A stretch of DNA of 64,000 nt from an uncultured Gammaproteobacteria bacterium (lineage in GTDB: Bacteria; Patescibacteriota; Patescibacteriia; CAYZDG01), in assembly GCA_964536515.1 (NCBI GenBank), contig CAZHXI010000003.1, forward strand, positions 9,112 through 73,111, written 5' to 3'. A program made the position numbers and the translations under genes. The notes beneath the pieces are model-generated. The model saw nothing but the letters and a program-made list of their open reading frames with translations. It had not been told where the DNA came from and did no database searches. Of this stretch, positions 27,698-61,283 are shown piece by piece. Positions within the stretch are counted from its first letter, which is position 1; each line of letters starts with the position of its first letter.

Positions 27698-28819
27698 TTA
27701 CTCTACCAGACGGTAGCGTCCGCCGGGAAGCTTGGCGAACCGCTTGCGGTTCATCAGCGCCAGGGCAACGGTGGAAGACTTCACCACCCGCTGCTTCAGC
27801 ACGCGCTCCACAATCTCGTCCTTGGTAAGGGGCTCGGCTGCATCGCGGAGCACCCGCTCGATTACGTCGGCGACCACGCCGGGCTGGTAGCCCCACTCGC
27901 GCAGTGCGTAGGTGCCGCGGCCGACCAGCACGTACTTGGAGTCGAGGATCAGCTCGTTGTGCACCGTGGCCGGGTAGGCGGTCTTGTGGTCGAAGCCCGT
28001 CTCGTTGATAGCCTTGGCGATGTCGGTGAAGTGCATGGGCTTGCCGTACTTCTTGAGCACCAGGTAGATCTTGTCGCTCATGCGGCGCGGGTTGACCGTC
28101 TTCCAGTCCGCCAGGCCCCACTCGCCGTACGGGTTCACCCGCAGCTTGTTGCTGGCGCGCATGTACGACTCGACCGCGTCATCGGTGAGGGAGTCGCTGT
28201 TCTCGCTGTAGTGCGGGTGGGCCTTAACGGCAGCCAGGACGTCATCCATAGGCTTCGGCTCGCCCAGCTTGTCGATGACGGTGTGGAGCGACAGCAGCGT
28301 CTTCTCGATGAACTCCCACGGGGTGGCTGCGAGGCGCCAGGAGGGGTGCAGCTCGTCGCGATACTTCAGCCGCTCGACCTCGTCCACCAGCTTATCGATG
28401 AGCATGAGGGCGGCTGCGCGCTGCTCGCGGACCGAAGACTGCTGGCCGAGCACGCGGTCCAGGCCCATGTCCTCGGGAATGAGGCCGCCGTGCTGCTCGA
28501 GCACGCGGCGAGACACGGCGCCCAGCGGGGCGACCAGGCCCTCGCGCTCGTCAGCCTGGCGCAGCTTGCGCAGAGCCGAAGCCTCGATCTGGCGGACACG
28601 CTCACGGGTAATCTTGTACTGCTGGCCAATGGCCTCCAGCGTCTGCGGCTCCGGGTTCTTGCCCAAGCCGAAGCGTAGGTGAATCACCTCACGCTCGCGT
28701 GCGCTCAGCCCCTGGCCAAGCTTGATGATGATCTCGTACGGATTCAGGTCCTTAGCTAGCGACTCGTGCTGGCTAGAGAGCACCCGATCGAGGATGGAAT
28801 TTTCCTTGCTGTCGGCCAT
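27698..28819 (-). CDS. Sigma-70 region-4-like domain fused to three HARE-HTH-like repeats (about 373 aa from ATG 28819; track ORF TTG at 28867)
   Basis: N-terminal [51 protein letters not shown] matches the sigma70 region 4 consensus. Three repeats starting (K/E)P(M/L) and ending ...[11 protein letters not shown] / ...[10 protein letters not shown] / ...GGRYRLVE resemble the HARE-HTH of RNAP delta subunit. Confidence 0.7.
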
Positions 28820-28927
28820 ATATTTATTGCTATTGCGCACAGTACCACAGTATGTTTTAAGCGTCAAGCAAGCCTGTGCACAGGCAGCCCCGGCGGTAGC
28901 CGGGGCTAGCAGAACCGCTGCAGTCCC

Positions 28928-29827
28928 CTACCGGGGCTTTAGGTACCTACGGCTAGCCCACAGCAGCACGGGGCTGGCCACGAAAATCGACGAGTAGCTT
29001 CCCACGATAATGCCTACGCTCATGACGAATGCTAGGGGCCGAACGCTGGCGCCGCCGAACAGCATGATGGCGACGGCAACGAACAGCGTGGTGAGCGAGG
29101 TGTTCAGCGAACGGACGATGGTCTGGTTGATGCTGGTATTCACCACATCCTCGAAGGTTCCGGGGGTATGGTGCCTCAGGTTCTCACGCAGCCGGTCGAA
29201 GGTAACAATGGTGTCGTGCACCGAGAAACCCAGCAGCGTGAGCAGCGCGGTTACGAGCAAGCTGTCTGCCTGCCAGCCTGTGTAGTGCGCCACGAAGGCG
29301 AAGGCGCCCAGGCTGATCGTAACGTCGTGGATGAGGGCGACCGCTGCGGCCAGTCCGTACTGGAAGGCCGGCACCGGCTTGGTGATGCCGCGGAAGACGT
29401 ACGTTAGGTAGAAGATGATCGCCAGGATGACGCCCAGGATAGCCCAAACTGCTTTACGCTGGAGCTCGGCGCCGATAGTCGGACCCACGGAGTCGAACCG
29501 GAGCTCGTCTACCGACTCGGGGGCGTCGCCCCTCAGCGCGGCCAGGGCGGCCTGGTGGGTAGCCTCATCCATGGTGGCAGCCCGCAGCAGGTAGCGGTCG
29601 CTGTCGCTGGGCTGAATGCTGAGGTTCACCAACTCGACGGGCTCCAGGCTCCTACGAACGGCCTCGATGTCGGGACGCTCGACGGTGTAGCGGACCTCCA
29701 GCAGGCTGCCGCCGGTGAAGTCTAGACCCAGGCTCAGGCCCCGGGTGAGCAGCACCACTACGCTGGCAGCCACCAGCACGCAGCTGATGCCTACCCACCA
29801 CTTCCTGGTCTGAATGATGCGGTACAT
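28928..29827 (-). CDS. secF: Protein translocase subunit SecF
   Basis: Six-TM SecF layout; LDFTGGSLLEV periplasmic start. Confidence 0.9.
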   Translation of the reverse strand: MYRIIQTRKWWVGISCVLVAASVVVLLTRGLSLGLDFTGGSLLEVRYTVERPDIEAVRRSLEPVELVNLSIQPSDSDRYLLRAATMDEATHQAALAALRGDAPESVDELRFDSVGPTIGAELQRKAVWAILGVILAIIFYLTYVFRGITKPVPAFQYGLAAAVALIHDVTISLGAFAFVAHYTGWQADSLLVTALLTLLGFSVHDTIVTFDRLRENLRHHTPGTFEDVVNTSINQTIVRSLNTSLTTLFVAVAIMLFGGASVRPLAFVMSVGIIVGSYSSIFVASPVLLWASRRYLKPR

Positions 29828-29830
29828 AGG

Positions 29831-31486
29831 CTAGCGTGGGGTAACAATCCACCGCGGCGGCTGCCACTTGCCGCTGAATACGACTCGCATGAGCGTACGG
29901 GTGAAGGTGATAGCTGTGAACATGCTGACGACGATGCCAATGGCCAGGGTAATGGCGAAGCCCTTTACGATGCCGGTGCCGAACCAGGCCAGAATGACGC
30001 AGGTGATGAGCGAGCTGACGTTGGAGTCACGAATGGCCAGCCAGGCGCGGCTGAAGCTGTCCTCTACCGCCAGGGCCATGGGCTTGCCGGCGCGCAGCTC
30101 CTCCCGTAGGCGCTCGAAGATGAGCACGTTGGCGTCCACCGCCATGCCGATTGAGAGGATGAACCCGGCGATGCCGGCCAGGGTCAACGTTACCGGCCAG
30201 ACCTCGAACACAGCCATCGAAACTACGGCGTAGGCTAGCAGCGCCACCACGGCCATGAGGCCGGGCAGGCGGTAGTACAGCAGCATGAACAGGGCTACGG
30301 CGAGCAGGCCGAGCAAGCCGGCGATTAGGCTCTGCTGCACCGAGACCTTGCCCAGCGTGGGGCCGACGGTCTGCTGGCTGATGAGGTTGATGGGGACCGG
30401 CAGCGCACCGGCGTTCAGCCGCTGAGCCAGCAGCTTGGCATCCTTAAGGCTGAAGTCTCCGGTAATAATGGCACGGCCCTCGGTAATAGCCGTCTGCACC
30501 GTGGGCACGCTAATGGCCTGCCCGTCTAGGAAGATGGCAATAGGCTTGCCGATGTTCGCCTGGGTCAGCTCGGCGAACAGCTGCCTGCCCTGGTCGTCGA
30601 AGGTCAGGGCGACGTGCGGCTGGCCGGTGTTCTGGTCGAACTCCACCTGCGAGCGCTTCAGGTTCTTGCCGGTCAGCTGGGTGTTCCTCCACTCGCCCTC
30701 GCCCGCTGCGGCAGCCTTGAACAGGATGTGGGACGATCGAACCTCGCGGCTGAAGGCATCGCCGCGTACGTCGGTAACCTTGATGATGTGGTAGCCGAAC
30801 TGGCTGCGCACCAGCTGCGGCAGCACGGCGCCGGGCTTCAGGCCGGGCGCGAGAATAGCATCCTTGTACTCGGGCACGAAGCTGGTTTCGGAGCTTGCCC
30901 AGCCGACGTCGCCGCCCTGCACCTTGCTGCCCTCGTCCTCGCTGAACTCGGCAGCGAGCTTGGCGAAGTCCTCGCCCTTGGCTGCGCGGCCCAGCACCAG
31001 CAGCGCCCTATCCTGCACCGCTGAGTCTGCTGGGGCGGCCGATGCGGTGCCGGTAGCGACCTGCTCCTTGAACTCCAGCAGCGGCGTCTCGCCGATGAGC
31101 TTAATTGCCTGGCCTACGTCGCTTATGCCCGCCAGCTCTGCAATTACACGGTAGCTGTCGCCGTAGCGGCTGGTCTGGATGACCGGCTCGCTGACGCCGA
31201 AGGCGTTCACCCGGCGCTCGATGACGTCGCGGACGCCGTCCATGGCCTCGGTGCGCTCGGAGCTATCCAGCTGGCTGACGTCTGCCTCGTACACCAGGTG
31301 GGTTCCCCCCTGTAGGTCTAGCCCCAGGTGGGAGGTGAAGCTGTTCAGCTTCTTGGCGAACGGCAGGCTCTCGGGCACCCGCACGGGCAGGCTAATGGCC
31401 GAGGCAATAGCCAATACAGCAACCAGTGCCGCGAATGAGTACCACACCCGGTGGCGGGTAACGGTGCTGGTTGGTCGGTTCGCCAT
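29831..31486 (-). CDS. secD: Protein translocase subunit SecD carrying an inserted PpiC/parvulin-type PPIase-like domain in the periplasmic head (551 aa)
   Basis: SecD motifs (LGLDLQGGTHLVYEAD..., IAIFLDGQAISVPTVQTAITEGRAIITG, C-terminal 6 TM). The insert ...EDFAKLAAEFSEDEGSKVQGGDVGWASSETSFVPEYKDAIL...QFGYHIIKVTD matches the parvulin rotamase consensus. Confidence 0.85.
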   Translation of the reverse strand: MANRPTSTVTRHRVWYSFAALVAVLAIASAISLPVRVPESLPFAKKLNSFTSHLGLDLQGGTHLVYEADVSQLDSSERTEAMDGVRDVIERRVNAFGVSEPVIQTSRYGDSYRVIAELAGISDVGQAIKLIGETPLLEFKEQVATGTASAAPADSAVQDRALLVLGRAAKGEDFAKLAAEFSEDEGSKVQGGDVGWASSETSFVPEYKDAILAPGLKPGAVLPQLVRSQFGYHIIKVTDVRGDAFSREVRSSHILFKAAAAGEGEWRNTQLTGKNLKRSQVEFDQNTGQPHVALTFDDQGRQLFAELTQANIGKPIAIFLDGQAISVPTVQTAITEGRAIITGDFSLKDAKLLAQRLNAGALPVPINLISQQTVGPTLGKVSVQQSLIAGLLGLLAVALFMLLYYRLPGLMAVVALLAYAVVSMAVFEVWPVTLTLAGIAGFILSIGMAVDANVLIFERLREELRAGKPMALAVEDSFSRAWLAIRDSNVSSLITCVILAWFGTGIVKGFAITLAIGIVVSMFTAITFTRTLMRVVFSGKWQPPRWIVTPR

Positions 31487-31546: not shown

Positions 31547-31978
31547 CTACCGACCCACGAGGGCTGCGTAGGCTGCCAGAGCATCACCAATCCCGCTCAT
31601 CAGGGTGAAGCCGCCTAGGTCCTTGGGGTCTGCCCACACGAACTCGTCGTGGTCCTGGCTCAGCACAACGTCACCGGATTCCGACGTGCACTCGAAGTAG
31701 ATGCCCACGATGTGGTGCGGCACCCCCTTGATGACCGGGTACCACTCGGTTACGTACACCGGCCGGCCGACCTCAACCTGCAGCCCGCACTCCTCCACTG
31801 CCTCGCGCTTGAGCTCGTCTACCAGCGGCTGCCCGGGAACGATGCGCCCGCCCGGCATGTCGTACTTGCCCACGTTAGTCCCCTCTTCGTACTTGCCGGA
31901 CTCACGGATGAGCAGAACTTTGCCGTCGCGCACGATGATTGCGCGGCAGGCCACGCGGAGCTGGATGTCGTCGGGCAT
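31547..31978 (-). CDS. NUDIX hydrolase (143 aa)
   Basis: Nudix box GGRIVPGQPLVDELKREAVEECGL. Confidence 0.85.
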   Translation of the reverse strand: MPDDIQLRVACRAIIVRDGKVLLIRESGKYEEGTNVGKYDMPGGRIVPGQPLVDELKREAVEECGLQVEVGRPVYVTEWYPVIKGVPHHIVGIYFECTSESGDVVLSQDHDEFVWADPKDLGGFTLMSGIGDALAAYAALVGR

Positions 31979-31979
31979 A

Positions 31980-32570
31980 CTATCGCTTTTTTGCTAGGAG
32001 CCAATCGGGCTCGGGGATGAAGGTGATCTCTGGCCAGTGGTCTATCTCCGCCTCGGTGAAGTCGTAGTGCATCTGGTACACCGTCTCTACGCTGCCGTGC
32101 ATTGCCTCGCTCCAGTCGAAACCGAGAGCCTGCGCCGCAGCCCGCACGGCCTCCTCGGAGGGACCCTCTAGCTCCACGAAGGTCGGTACCCAGGGCCACG
32201 TATCAATGGTTACCTCAACGTCACCCAGCTTCCACAGCTCACGCTTCGTCTCCTGGTACGCTCGGCTCTCTAGTCCTATGCCGCGGAAGATAGCGCAGGC
32301 CTGGTCGTAGCTATCCACCGTAACGGTTGCATCCAATGTCCCGTGCAAGCTGCGGTCGTTGAGCTGCTTGTAGCTCATGGTGATCTTGCTGCCCTCGTCG
32401 CGAACCCTAGCCCATCCGCCGATCTCCTCTAGCCGTTGATCTGGGAAGTCGAACACGTTGCGACGCATCATGATTTCCGGATGGACCAGAACTGCACCGA
32501 CCTCAGCCAGCTTGGCACGGACGGCGGTCGGATCAACGTTGGGAAATTTGGCCTCGATTTCGGTCTGCAT
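31980..32570 (-). CDS. CYTH-domain protein (triphosphate tunnel metalloenzyme; 196 aa)
   Basis: N-terminal EIEAKF (ExExK) motif and the length and acidic pattern typical of CYTH. Confidence 0.7.
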   Translation of the reverse strand: MQTEIEAKFPNVDPTAVRAKLAEVGAVLVHPEIMMRRNVFDFPDQRLEEIGGWARVRDEGSKITMSYKQLNDRSLHGTLDATVTVDSYDQACAIFRGIGLESRAYQETKRELWKLGDVEVTIDTWPWVPTFVELEGPSEEAVRAAAQALGFDWSEAMHGSVETVYQMHYDFTEAEIDHWPEITFIPEPDWLLAKKR

Positions 32571-32579
32571 TGCTGCATG

Positions 32580-32837
32580 CTACTCCCCCGCCTCGATACG
32601 CTCAAACCTAGGCACTGCGCGACCATCGACCTCTACAGATTCTAAAAACATAACGAGGGGACGGACCCACAGGCTGCCGTCCTTCTGCGCGCGATAGACC
32701 ACCAGCTCCTCCAGGGTCTCGCTGTGCCGGGCTACACCCAGCACCTCGTACATCCCGCCCTTGTAGTGGCGGTATTCCCCGGGTTGGAGATTTACAGCCT
32801 CGGGAGACGGTGGCGGTAGTTGATCCACGCTAATCAA
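32580..32837 (-). CDS. DUF1653-family small protein (85 aa; TTG start in track)
   Basis: YRHYKGGMYEVLGVARHSETLEELVVYR motif characteristic of DUF1653. Confidence 0.6.
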   Translation of the reverse strand: MISVDQLPPPSPEAVNLQPGEYRHYKGGMYEVLGVARHSETLEELVVYRAQKDGSLWVRPLVMFLESVEVDGRAVPRFERIEAGE

Positions 32838-33239
32838 TTAGACCCAAATTACCGTTGAGAATCACCGGCTTCACGGCCTCGATCTCCGTTCGGTAGTACG
32901 GGATATCGGGAACCGGGTTCAGAAGGAATATCTTCTGATCTAGTACGTGGGCGAACCCTATCTCCATCAGGGTATTGCCGCCGATGTAGTTCGGTACGCC
33001 GTTCTTCTCTACGTTGTAGACCAGGACCGCGTCCGCGCCCTGCATCGCTCGCCAGAACTCACGAATCGCATCGTGGTTATTCTTCTGGTCAATCTTGATA
33101 GCCTCTTTCTCCTCGTCTGTTTTGCCGACGAATGGCGCGGCGAGGCTGGTGACGAACGCATCGTGGCCGAGACGGACGAGCTCATCGCGAGCTTCAATCA
33201 TCCGCTCGGTAAACTGCATGCTACCGATGACGCCGATCT

Positions 33240-33243
<4 letters not shown>
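32830..33243 (-). CDS. Nucleoside 2-deoxyribosyltransferase-like protein (start MKIGVIGS at 33243; ATGA overlap with the HIT stop)
   Basis: MKIGVIGS Rossmann-like start and the ...ADAVLVYNVEKNG...GGNTLMEIGFAHVLDQKIFLL pattern of the NDT/YtoQ-like family. Confidence 0.55.
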
Positions 33244-36309
<3,066 letters not shown>

Positions 36310-36436
36310 AGTTGCTGGTGAACCGTACAATGCGCCGCCTCTTCCGGCAACCCTAATCTTGACTTTATCTAGATAGTATTATAGAACTGTCGCGAATAGC
36401 ACCGTAACAATCGACACCTACCAGAAGGAGCTTCCA

Positions 36437-60059: not shown

Positions 60060-61283
60060 ATGGAAAAACTGCAGCGACGGCTGCGTCTGTTCATAGTTCT
60101 CGCCCTGCTCACCGGAGCGGCGGCGGCTCTGTTCGTTGGCACCGCCAGCGCCCAGACGAGCACCGCCGAGACCGTAACCATTGGGGATATGGGGCTAACG
60201 GCTACCCCGCCGGCGGGTGGCTTCGCCCGGTGGTGGGACAGCTTCACGGACGGCGTAAGGCTGCAGTTTACCTTCAATGACCAGAGGAAAGCCGAGCTGC
60301 AGCTGCAGCGGGCCGCCAAGCTCCTCGCCCGACTAGAGCAGGCCGGGGGCGACGCCCAGGCAGAGCAGCTGCTGGCCAAGTACCGGGCCGCGGTGAACAA
60401 GATCGAAGCGGAAGCCGAGCTGAGCGACACGTTCCTGGGTAGGCTCCTGGCCCAGCAGAGCTTCATTACCCAAATCGAGGGCTCGGGCCGCTTCAGCTTG
60501 GGCGACCAGCTAGCCGTTACGCGCAACCAGAACTGGGAGAAGCTGAACGCAACCTTCGGCGATGCCGGAGCGCTTAGCCAGCGCCTAGCCAACCTACCTA
60601 CCGCCTCGCCCGAGGCAATTGCCAGGCGTGCGGCCATGCTGGAGGAGTGGCGGCAGCGCCTCTCGCCCGAGCAGCAGGCTAAGGCCGAGGCTGCCATAGG
60701 TGCACTGGTAGAGAAGCTCCGCAGCCTATCCCCCGCCCAGGCAGCGGCCATTGCCGAACGTCTGCACGCCTTCACCGCCAGCCAAGAAGCCCAGGCGTAC
60801 ATCGGGGCGCTCCTGGAGAAGGTGCAGCCTAGCCTGGAGGGGCTGGCTAAGCAGCTGGCGCAGCCCCGGCAGCCCAACCAAGACCCGACGCCGGCCAATG
60901 CCGCTGCCGGCATCCTGGGCAACGTTGCGGTGCCCCCCATGTCAGCCGGGGAGATTGCCGCCCGTCGCGCCGAGCTTGCCGAGGCGACCACCAAGGATGA
61001 GCTGCTGGCCCTACGCCAGCGCTGGTACGGCAACCCGGTGCTCTACCGGCAGCTATCGCAGTACCAGCGCACGCTGCTGGACCAGCTCAACGCCAAGCTG
61101 GTCAAAGCCCTGGGCAGGGGCTCGCAGCCGGTAACCCCCGCTGCTCCGACGGATCCGGACGCCGGCGTAACTCCCCTCCCCACCCAGCAGCTGACCCCCG
61201 AGCAGCAGGCAATGGGCCAGGCCTTCATCCAGATGCAGGGCATAGACTCCAGCGACCTACCGCCGCCCACGGTCTCTTACTAG
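60060..61283 (+). CDS. Secreted hypothetical alpha-helical protein (407 aa)
   Basis: Signal peptide; Ala/Gln/Leu-rich helical repeats. An extended -10-like TGGTATACT lies about 40 nt upstream. Confidence 0.65.
   Translation: MEKLQRRLRLFIVLALLTGAAAALFVGTASAQTSTAETVTIGDMGLTATPPAGGFARWWDSFTDGVRLQFTFNDQRKAELQLQRAAKLLARLEQAGGDAQAEQLLAKYRAAVNKIEAEAELSDTFLGRLLAQQSFITQIEGSGRFSLGDQLAVTRNQNWEKLNATFGDAGALSQRLANLPTASPEAIARRAAMLEEWRQRLSPEQQAKAEAAIGALVEKLRSLSPAQAAAIAERLHAFTASQEAQAYIGALLEKVQPSLEGLAKQLAQPRQPNQDPTPANAAAGILGNVAVPPMSAGEIAARRAELAEATTKDELLALRQRWYGNPVLYRQLSQYQRTLLDQLNAKLVKALGRGSQPVTPAAPTDPDAGVTPLPTQQLTPEQQAMGQAFIQMQGIDSSDLPPPTVSY

Follow-up and report, generated by a model that had tools for sequence, protein, structure and literature searches.

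The window considered here is the whole 64,000-nucleotide stretch analyzed from contig CAZHXI010000003.1 (assembly GCA_964536515.1), and it codes for a SecD protein with a parvulin-type peptidyl-prolyl isomerase (PPIase) domain inserted at the entry to its P1-head. At the level of sequence, the insert is a complete, circularly permuted parvulin, organized in the order alpha1-alpha2-alpha3-beta2-alpha4-beta3-beta4-hairpin-beta1. It departs from the canonical chain order in that beta1 stands after beta4, with every element of the fold being present. This appears to be the first circularly permuted parvulin to be described; no report of such a protein, or of a SecD-parvulin fusion, was found in the open-access literature, and databases annotate these fusions simply as SecD.

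Organization of the SecD-parvulin protein

The secD gene is a single uninterrupted open reading frame (ORF) of 551 amino acids (aa) on the minus strand, with exact limits at 29831-31486. Its product is 100% identical to database protein P0001, contains the peptides quoted in the initial annotation, and scores 402.2 bits with the NCBIfam secD model TIGR01129 (cut-off, 244.4). Pfam profiles SecD_1st (residues 82-142), SecDF_P1_head (268-364; E 1.8e-32), and SecD_SecF_C (367-533) exceed their gathering cut-offs, and Sec_GG (54-69) falls just under (20.0 versus 20.3). AlphaFold2 was run without templates on the full-length protein (118 sequences; predicted local distance difference test [pLDDT] of 83.9) and on the isolated insert (pLDDT 85.5; predicted TM-score [pTM] of 0.76). 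The SecD topology is present, with helices at 11-32 and 380-537 and the P1 strands in between, and the SecDF structures 5yhf, 5xan, and 3aqp top the Foldseek list for the full-length model. The gene, its parts, and the adjoining secF are as follows.

29831..31486, minus strand: secD with the parvulin insert, 551 aa (ORF, TIGR01129, Pfam layout, Foldseek)
31391..31456, minus strand: first transmembrane helix (TM1) of SecD, residues 11-32 (AlphaFold2 helix 11-32; peptide checked)
31061..31330, minus strand: N-terminal part of the P1-base, residues 53-142, closing with the hinge strand TPLLEFKE (Sec_GG and SecD_1st; aligned to residues 34 to ~117 of Thermus thermophilus SecDF, TtSecDF)
31034..31060, minus strand: N-terminal linker into the parvulin, residues 143-151 (pLDDT <50 at 146-150; length and sequence vary among homologs)
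30764..31033, minus strand: parvulin core from alpha1 to beta4, residues 152-241 (Rotamase and Rotamase_3 matches, AlphaFold2, conservation)
30746..30763, minus strand: six-residue hairpin loop GDAFSR from beta4 to the relocated beta1, residues 242-247 (AlphaFold2 secondary structure)
30716..30745, minus strand: relocated parvulin beta1 strand EVRSSHILFK, residues 248-257 (re-permutation tests, conservation, AlphaFold2, 8hm3 superposition)
30692..30715, minus strand: C-terminal linker back into SecD, residues 258-265 (variable columns; pLDDT ~72 for the block 261-270)
30395..30691, minus strand: SecD P1-head proper, residues 266-364 (PF22599 at 268-364, E 1.8e-32; TtSecDF alignment from residue 160)
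29867..30388, minus strand: P1-base return strand and TM2-TM6, residues 367-540 (SecD_SecF_C)
28928..29827, minus strand: secF, 299 aa (TIGR00966, 274 bits; cut-off, 160)

Comparison with TtSecDF (3aqp) defines the limits of the insert. Residues 53-157 of the window SecD correspond to 34-134 of TtSecDF and residues 271-551 to 160-441, and about 113 residues in the window SecD stand where TtSecDF has about 25, a net insert of about 90 aa that agrees with the ~95 aa first estimated. The insert starts right behind TPLLEFKE, the hinge strand connecting the P1-base to the P1-head, in which T134, P135, E138, and F139 are invariant in the family alignment, and it ends just ahead of the first P1-head strand, W..T.L(T/S)G.

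All three Pfam rotamase profiles match this region (~152-241) above their gathering cut-offs: Rotamase_3 at 157-240 (E 1e-17; 65.1 bits, cut-off 22.5), Rotamase at 152-239 (E 3.5e-15; 57.2 bits, cut-off 21.7), and Rotamase_2 (E 1e-6; 30.0 bits, cut-off 27). The parvulin match is far beyond chance, and the observation on which the initial annotation rested, a SecD with a parvulin-type domain in its periplasmic P1 region, is confirmed, with the domain placed at the P1-head entry; its interpretation is partly supported. As a whole protein, the window SecD scores well below the NCBIfam cut-offs for SurA (52.2 versus 394), PrsA (52.6 versus 361), and PpiD-type PRK10788 (36.2 versus 493), and no chaperone-domain Pfam match (NC, SurA_N, or PpiD) is found in it. 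The insert is predicted to work like a SurA/PrsA/PpiD parvulin module without membership in those families.

The SecDF motor parts are intact. Residue D451 (nucleotides 30134-30136) is invariant in the 118 sequences of the family and pairs by alignment with TtSecDF D340, the essential proton-relay Asp in TM4, and secF starts 3 nucleotides past the secD stop codon. The essential TM4 Asp of SecDF is termed 'esAspIV' (PMC5974789). The SecDF proteins of T. thermophilus and Deinococcus radiodurans (3AQP, 5YHF, and 5XAN) are the closest sequence and Foldseek matches of the window SecD and share with it TM1, the P1-base, the P1-head, five further transmembrane helices, and the proton-relay Asp. However, T. 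thermophilus SecDF is one chain with about 25 residues from hinge to head, whereas the window has separate SecD and SecF genes and about 113 residues in this interval, including the parvulin.

Circular permutation and the active site

With the chain in its native order, the rotamase profiles match only from positions 13/97 (Rotamase) and 36/116 (Rotamase_3) onward, and no HILV-type strand precedes alpha1, so that the N-terminal beta1 with the first catalytic His is missing in front of the core. The initial annotation had read the first catalytic His as replaced, with ALLVLG in place of HILV, but this assignment does not hold. The ALLVLGRAAKGEDF segment aligns with parvulin helix alpha1 (AlphaFold2 helix 152-169), to which ALLVLG belongs, and the true beta1 His is H253, which lies after beta4 and is present in 119/120 homologs. 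It is part of EVRSSHILFK, a textbook parvulin beta1, situated seven residues past the beta4 strand GYHIIKVTDVR.

Restoring the canonical order improves the match. With residues 242-264 placed before the core, the Rotamase score rises from 61.0 to 69.6 bits (+8.6) and the match reaches profile position 1, and the Rotamase_3 score rises from 69.4 to 77.1 bits, with the matched profile span extending from 36-115 to 15-115; the same residues shuffled and placed in front of the core give no gain. The behavior is general to the family, as scored on 118 members with a canonical-parvulin hidden Markov model (HMM) made from 179 parvulin domains of non-SecD proteins. The mean score is 103.8 bits in the native order, where the alignment begins at HMM position 28, and 119.1 bits in the re-permuted order, with the start at position 6. 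The gain averages +15.3 bits (range, 8.4 to 22.2) and is positive in 118/118 members, compared with +0.6 for the shuffled control.

Structure prediction is consistent with this order. The full-length and insert-only AlphaFold2 models contain the same elements, with pLDDT of about 90 over the whole parvulin unit: helices at 152-169, 174-181, 185-188, and 205-211, and strands at 193-197, 226-228, and 231-241, followed by a six-residue turn and a strand at 248-257. The GDAFSR loop has no gaps at five positions and one gap at the sixth in the alignment of 120 homologs. Canonical parvulins have the two His residues adjacent on the neighboring strands beta1 and beta4 and chain termini that are close together, so a short beta4-beta1 hairpin with new termini at the beta1/alpha1 junction is the classical geometry of a circular permutant. 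In the canonical four-stranded antiparallel sheet, beta1 lies between beta4 and beta2; the models contain a confident beta4-turn-beta1' hairpin, and this together with the superposition on 8hm3 would suit such a position for residues 248-257.

Two other assignments were considered and rejected. The SecD strand GGTHLVY (residues 60-66) as the missing beta1 is a Sec_GG/P1-base motif that is also found in the insert-free T. thermophilus SecDF (LDLKGG...). The other would have residues 248-257 match P1-head profile positions 1-17, but HMMER gives no such alignment, and these residues score as a parvulin beta1.

The equivalences with Pin1 were taken by using the canonical HMM to align the re-permuted insert with Pin1 and Par10 (the numbering of both reference sequences is self-consistent). 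The catalytic tetrad of Pin1 corresponds to H253 (Pin1 H59; nucleotides 30728-30730, minus strand here and below), D184 (C113; 30935-30937), S228 (T152; 30803-30805), and H233 (H157; 30788-30790), and the proline pocket corresponds to V194 (L122), F203 (M130), and Y207 (F134). Par10 C41 aligns at the D184 position, and Asp occupies the Pin1 C113 position in many bacterial parvulins. Among the 120 best database homologs (55-100% identity), D184, H233, and S/T228 are present in 120/120 and H253 in 119/120, with I254 and L255 of the relocated strand in 119/120 and 120/120, respectively; the tetrad and proline-pocket positions together are kept in 119-120/120. There is no Pin1-type phosphate-binding loop in the insert, which likens it to parvulins that are not phospho-specific; E. 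coli Par10/PpiC, human Pin1, and Par14 share its fold elements, tetrad, and proline pocket but have beta1 first rather than last. The predicted parvulin active site of this SecD is complete, and the earlier doubt about activity, founded on a lost His, loses its reason with all four tetrad positions present.

Distribution, variants, and genomic context

The initial annotation called for a survey of SecD orthologs, and the fusion proves to be common. Rotamase and SecD Pfam domains occur together in every one of the 120 best database homologs, and the named taxa among these are Komeilibacteria, Kerfeldbacteria, Veblenbacteria, Parcubacteria, and Patescibacteria. A search with SecD residues 128-300 of 1.84 billion cluster representatives gave 149 matches that were analyzed, 31 of which are SecD-parvulin fusions. 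In a scan of one genome per GTDB species, with the best 80 loci kept and a top identity to the window SecD of 51%, 54 loci code for fusions, and their titles name Buchananbacteria, Komeilibacteria, Kerfeldbacteria, Moranbacteria, Magasanikbacteria, Uhrbacteria, and Parcubacteria; the non-fusion loci among the 80 code for ordinary SurA, PpiD, or PrsA-type proteins from other phyla. The fusion-bearing metagenome-assembled genomes (MAGs) named at the candidate-phylum level are all Patescibacteria, and the architecture, as read from these sequences, is widespread in that group.

Spread beyond Patescibacteria was considered from MAG titles such as 'uncultured Gammaproteobacteria', 'Bdellovibrionales', 'Bathyarchaeia', 'Binatia', and 'Lysobacteraceae', but these labels are doubtful and were not used as evidence. 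The fusion loci with such titles (L002, L004, L009, L010, L013, L016, L017, L020, L022, L023, L026, L027, L031, and others) are probably third-party assemblies with wrong taxonomic labels. One locus in a Moraniibacteriota MAG (L036, 9761-12270) has its SecD-parvulin gene in three frames (the SecD N terminus with the parvulin, the head, and the transmembrane helices); either sequencing errors have shifted the frame or the gene is a pseudogene.

About 20 of the 54 fusion loci, and several cluster representatives, code for larger proteins of 650-730 aa with two parvulin cores (loci L034, L037-L039, L041, L043-L046, L049, L050, L053-L055, L057, and L067; proteins P0122, P0128, P0135, P0136, P0144, P0158, P0186, P0200, P0204, and P0229). 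They are organized as core 1, an xSHILx strand, core 2, and a trailing strand. The catalytic His is present in beta4 of core 1 in 1/26 of these proteins, in the middle strand in 26/26, in beta4 of core 2 in 26/26, and in the trailing strand in about 9/26. Because the His residues of the middle strand and core 2 are co-conserved, this pattern suggests a canonical, active parvulin made up of these two parts, which would lie within the beta4-beta1' hairpin of a permuted domain that has degenerated. The frequent loss of the trailing-strand His indicates that the permuted unit can degenerate once a second domain is present.

Many of the double variants, though not all, have a C-x6-C pair (sometimes C-x7-C) right after the middle SHIL(I/L) strand, as in P0135 (SHLLLCHNEVEGCSND, residues ~276-290) and P0158 (SHILICWQGATACTQ), and this pair may form a disulfide-bonded loop in the extracytoplasmic domain. 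Protein P0223 (624 aa) has a single parvulin with a low-complexity loop of about 55 residues rich in Gly, Val, and Glu (residues ~245-300) between beta4 and the SHIL strand, showing that the hairpin that closes the permutation tolerates large insertions.

The best relatives of the insert are SurA-like. E. coli SurA is among the best sequence relatives (E 8e-19), and the only significant Foldseek matches of the isolated insert are 8hm3_B, 8hm4_A, and 8hm4_B, from an essential SurA-like periplasmic PPIase of Bacteroides fragilis (105-107 columns; root mean square deviation [rmsd] of 1.8-2.5 A; TM-scores TMq 0.65-0.69 and TMt 0.21-0.22; identity 34-35%). An equal number of columns aligns to Streptococcus pneumoniae PrsA (5tvl), with an rmsd of 12.8 A; the region past beta4 fails to superpose. 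From the TM-scores of 8hm3 and 8hm4, we estimate that about 95-100 residues are superposed, more than the roughly 86 available from alpha1 to beta4; the trailing strand therefore seems to be part of the superposition on 8hm3 too. In sequence order, 8hm3 has a beta1-like, His-free strand (VEVQIITQQ), a core 1 that closes in YGFHIIQLIEKRGDRINTRHILLK, and a degenerate core 2, and its sole complete His pair is divided between core 1 and the strand that comes next, an arrangement shared with the SecD insert.

The beta4-RGD-loop-xxHIL junction of the insert resembles the P1-to-P2 junction of SurA-type proteins, E. coli SurA included; the sequences are KVTDVRGDAFSREVRSSHILFK in the window SecD, QLVERRGDAVRTRHILF in a SurA-like protein labeled Bacteroidota (L063), and QLIERKGDQYSTRHILLK in one from Hymenobacter (L079). 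The most likely ancestor of the insert is a SurA-like protein with tandem parvulins, from which the stretch running from core 1 to the beta1 strand of the next domain would have been captured; such a route of duplication and truncation would yield the permuted unit. Among tandem parvulin proteins, 89/109 have the His pattern HHHH; the pattern -HH-, with the first beta1 and the second core His-free, is seen in 8hm3/8hm4, L065_9263_10738, L076_9206_10717, and L079_9356_10735 (Hymenobacter). This hints that the active domain of the -HH- proteins uses the strand after beta4, either strand-swapped or permuted.

The genes flanking secD and secF in the window include the following.

33628-36330, minus strand: secA, 2.1 kb upstream of secD and on the same strand
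27698-28867, minus strand: 389-aa protein with Sigma70 region 4 (residues 53-104) and HARE-HTH (residues 266-325), directly downstream of secF
26046-27635, minus strand: 529-aa protein with no Pfam match, adjoining the VirD4/TrwB-type ATPase
24273-26042, minus strand: VirD4/TrwB-type coupling ATPase with a treble-clef zinc finger
22309-24177 and 20511-22187, minus strand: two large Big_9/cadherin-like/CHB_HEX_C surface proteins

The interval between secD and secA (from 31547) codes for a HIT hydrolase, an unassigned 147-aa protein, an 85-aa ORF (32580-32837), a CYTH protein, and a NUDIX protein, and the region 31547-36330 (minus strand) is a loose Sec cluster interleaved with nucleotide-hydrolase genes. 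The sigma-factor fragment joined to a HARE-HTH domain at 27698-28867 is an unusual pairing. The VirD4-type coupling protein and the large Ig/cadherin-repeat surface proteins fit a Patescibacteria genome, and the closest named SecD relatives are 55-60% identical to the window SecD. The G+C content of the window is about 63% (~59-67% over most of it, with one dip to 53%), which is high for a genome of the candidate phyla radiation (CPR). Orphan type IV coupling protein genes are reported to be common in Patescibacteria (PMC12102498), and the VirD4/TrwB-type gene with its neighbors (20511-27635) agrees with this. ARAGORN calls a 96-nucleotide tRNA-Gly(GCC) at 61056-61151 (minus strand), with its anticodon at position 37 and inside long overlapping ORFs; no Rfam family, the tRNA model included, attains its gathering score there, and the call is either spurious or marks a tRNA that carries an insertion.

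Proposed role at the translocon

The P1-head of SecDF has an amphiphilic cavity and crosslinks to precursor (PMC5974789), and it swings among Super-F, F, and I forms, for which a proton-driven cycle of capture, pull, and release is proposed (PMC5974789). In canonical SecDF, the head takes up the chain that emerges from SecYEG and alternates between an upright form and one that faces the membrane. The Pfam layout, the 3aqp alignment, and the AlphaFold2 model together support the earlier proposal that puts a foldase-type module at the trans face of the translocon, where the insert is tethered at the hinge entry of the P1-head by two short linkers, the N-terminal one being variable and of low confidence. 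By analogy with parvulin chaperones that work beside the translocon, the insert is probably a foldase or holdase that rides on the proton-driven P1-head of SecD. The parvulin would travel with the moving head, would be the first folding factor met by a chain emerging from SecYEG at the outer face of the membrane, and would hold that chain and then isomerize its prolyl bonds upon release. The Patescibacteria lineage is thought to lack an outer membrane, and the cells are probably monoderm, with small genomes.

Other bacteria bring parvulins and the translocon together by other means. AlphaFold models place the E. coli SurA parvulin domains P1 and P2 on the P1-head of SecDF (PMC9987972), SurA associates with the holotranslocon (PMC9987972), and PpiD-YfgM is located at SecYEG (PMC9643414). 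In Mycoplasma pneumoniae, PrsA-like lipoproteins build a dome over the translocon (Mdp436/444/489) and crosslink to SecD, the crosslinking component being Mpn444. Like the insert, PpiD-YfgM and the Mycoplasma dome are parvulin-containing chaperones at the translocon exit, but they are separate, membrane-anchored proteins that associate non-covalently, whereas the window parvulin lies inside the moving motor head. The SecD fusion would hard-wire a coupling done non-covalently elsewhere by SurA, PpiD/YfgM, PrsA, and the Mycoplasma dome. SurA (1M5Y) and the B. fragilis PPIase (8HM3/8HM4) are soluble, have two parvulin domains besides a SurA_N chaperone domain, and deliver outer membrane proteins; the insert has no chaperone domain and is a single permuted unit covalently part of SecD, although its beta4-loop-beta1 junction copies that between their tandem domains. 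PrsA, which in monoderms serves as a parvulin foldase for Sec substrates on the outer side of the membrane, is most likely the functional analogue, but it differs in being a separate lipoprotein dimer with a canonical parvulin within an NC chaperone domain. The initial annotation proposed that the domain may substitute for stand-alone PpiD or PrsA in a reduced genome. The 64-kb window encodes no further parvulin, and neither do the regions examined around the 54 fusion loci, which reach 10 kb from each and amount to 836 kb.

Several observations weigh against the reading of the insert as an active, permuted foldase, or against its replacing PrsA. For the beta1'-beta4 pairing, and for where the parvulin sits with respect to the substrate cavity of the P1-head, the evidence consists of DSSP strings and TM-score arithmetic, and the trailing strand of the double-parvulin relatives is His-free in about 17/26. 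Some chaperone parvulin domains are catalytically inactive, PpiD and SurA P1 among them. The proline pocket of the window SecD departs, conservatively, from the family consensus, with V194 for L and Y207 for F. A survey also reports PrsA annotations in all CPR classes (PMC9166423), and some of these annotations might be this SecD-embedded domain.

The V194 and Y207 substitutions would also suit a passive holdase, in which a folded and permuted parvulin only enlarges the capture surface of the P1-head and has no isomerase chemistry. Such a role is in keeping with the PPIase-independent chaperone function of SurA and PpiD and with the promiscuous binding of unfolded chains by the P1-head itself (PMC5974789). 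A tetrad and proline pocket kept so nearly without exception in homologs down to 55% identity are, however, easier to explain by a site that is used, and the double-domain relatives retain exactly one complete His pair in 26/26, which looks like selection for one working site. We regard the passive holdase as rather unlikely, and because the tetrad is conserved, catalysis is somewhat more likely than a pure holdase role. A stronger form of the foldase reading, to which we give little weight, makes the parvulin a working part of the motor, with the P1-head cavity and the parvulin groove both holding the chain and with each swing delivering, isomerizing, and releasing a segment. If this were true, it would be an energy-coupled extracytoplasmic foldase in an ATP-free compartment, and the permuted order would let the domain be spliced rigidly into the hinge.

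The insert might instead act on SecDF or a partner, either as a lid or brake on the swing of the P1-head or as a docking module for cell-envelope components or a translocon subunit. The two flexible linkers at the hinge (pLDDT <50 at 146-150) and the strong variation in length of this part of P1 among SecDs (E. coli SecD has a far longer stretch ahead of the equivalent head strand; residue 268 here aligns to residue 325 of 5mg3_D) are compatible with this, but nothing specific favors it; conservation is concentrated in the catalytic and proline-pocket residues and marks out no separate surface patch, the known translocon partners of parvulin domains are substrates, and we consider such a role improbable. 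An N-terminally truncated parvulin, probably a relic deprived of beta1 and of the first catalytic His, would account for the late profile starts and the lack of a HILV-type strand before alpha1, but it is refuted at the level of sequence and highly improbable given that beta1 is present downstream, is almost invariant, restores the full-length profile match when moved, and is modeled by AlphaFold2 as a hairpin with beta4. A chimeric gene, from mis-assembly or a mis-called fusion of neighboring secD and prsA, was weighed only because the source is probably a MAG and has no point in its favor, and with a continuous frame, SecD sequence on both sides of the insert, and identical architecture in well over 100 independent assemblies from several sources, its likelihood is negligible.

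The handover of exported proteins by the Sec translocon to folding factors outside the cytoplasm is still a matter of debate, and the evidence for the associations of SurA with SecDF, of PpiD with SecYEG, and of the Mycoplasma dome with the translocon consists largely of weak interactions, maps of low resolution, and predicted models. A conserved fusion offers independent, 'Rosetta-stone' evidence that parvulin modules and the P1-head act together on shared substrates. As a compact system on a single polypeptide, the fusion also makes it possible to ask whether folding catalysis couples mechanically to proton-driven head movement. For the Patescibacteria, surveys of the CPR that count PrsA-type foldases may miss or mis-assign this domain of SecD.

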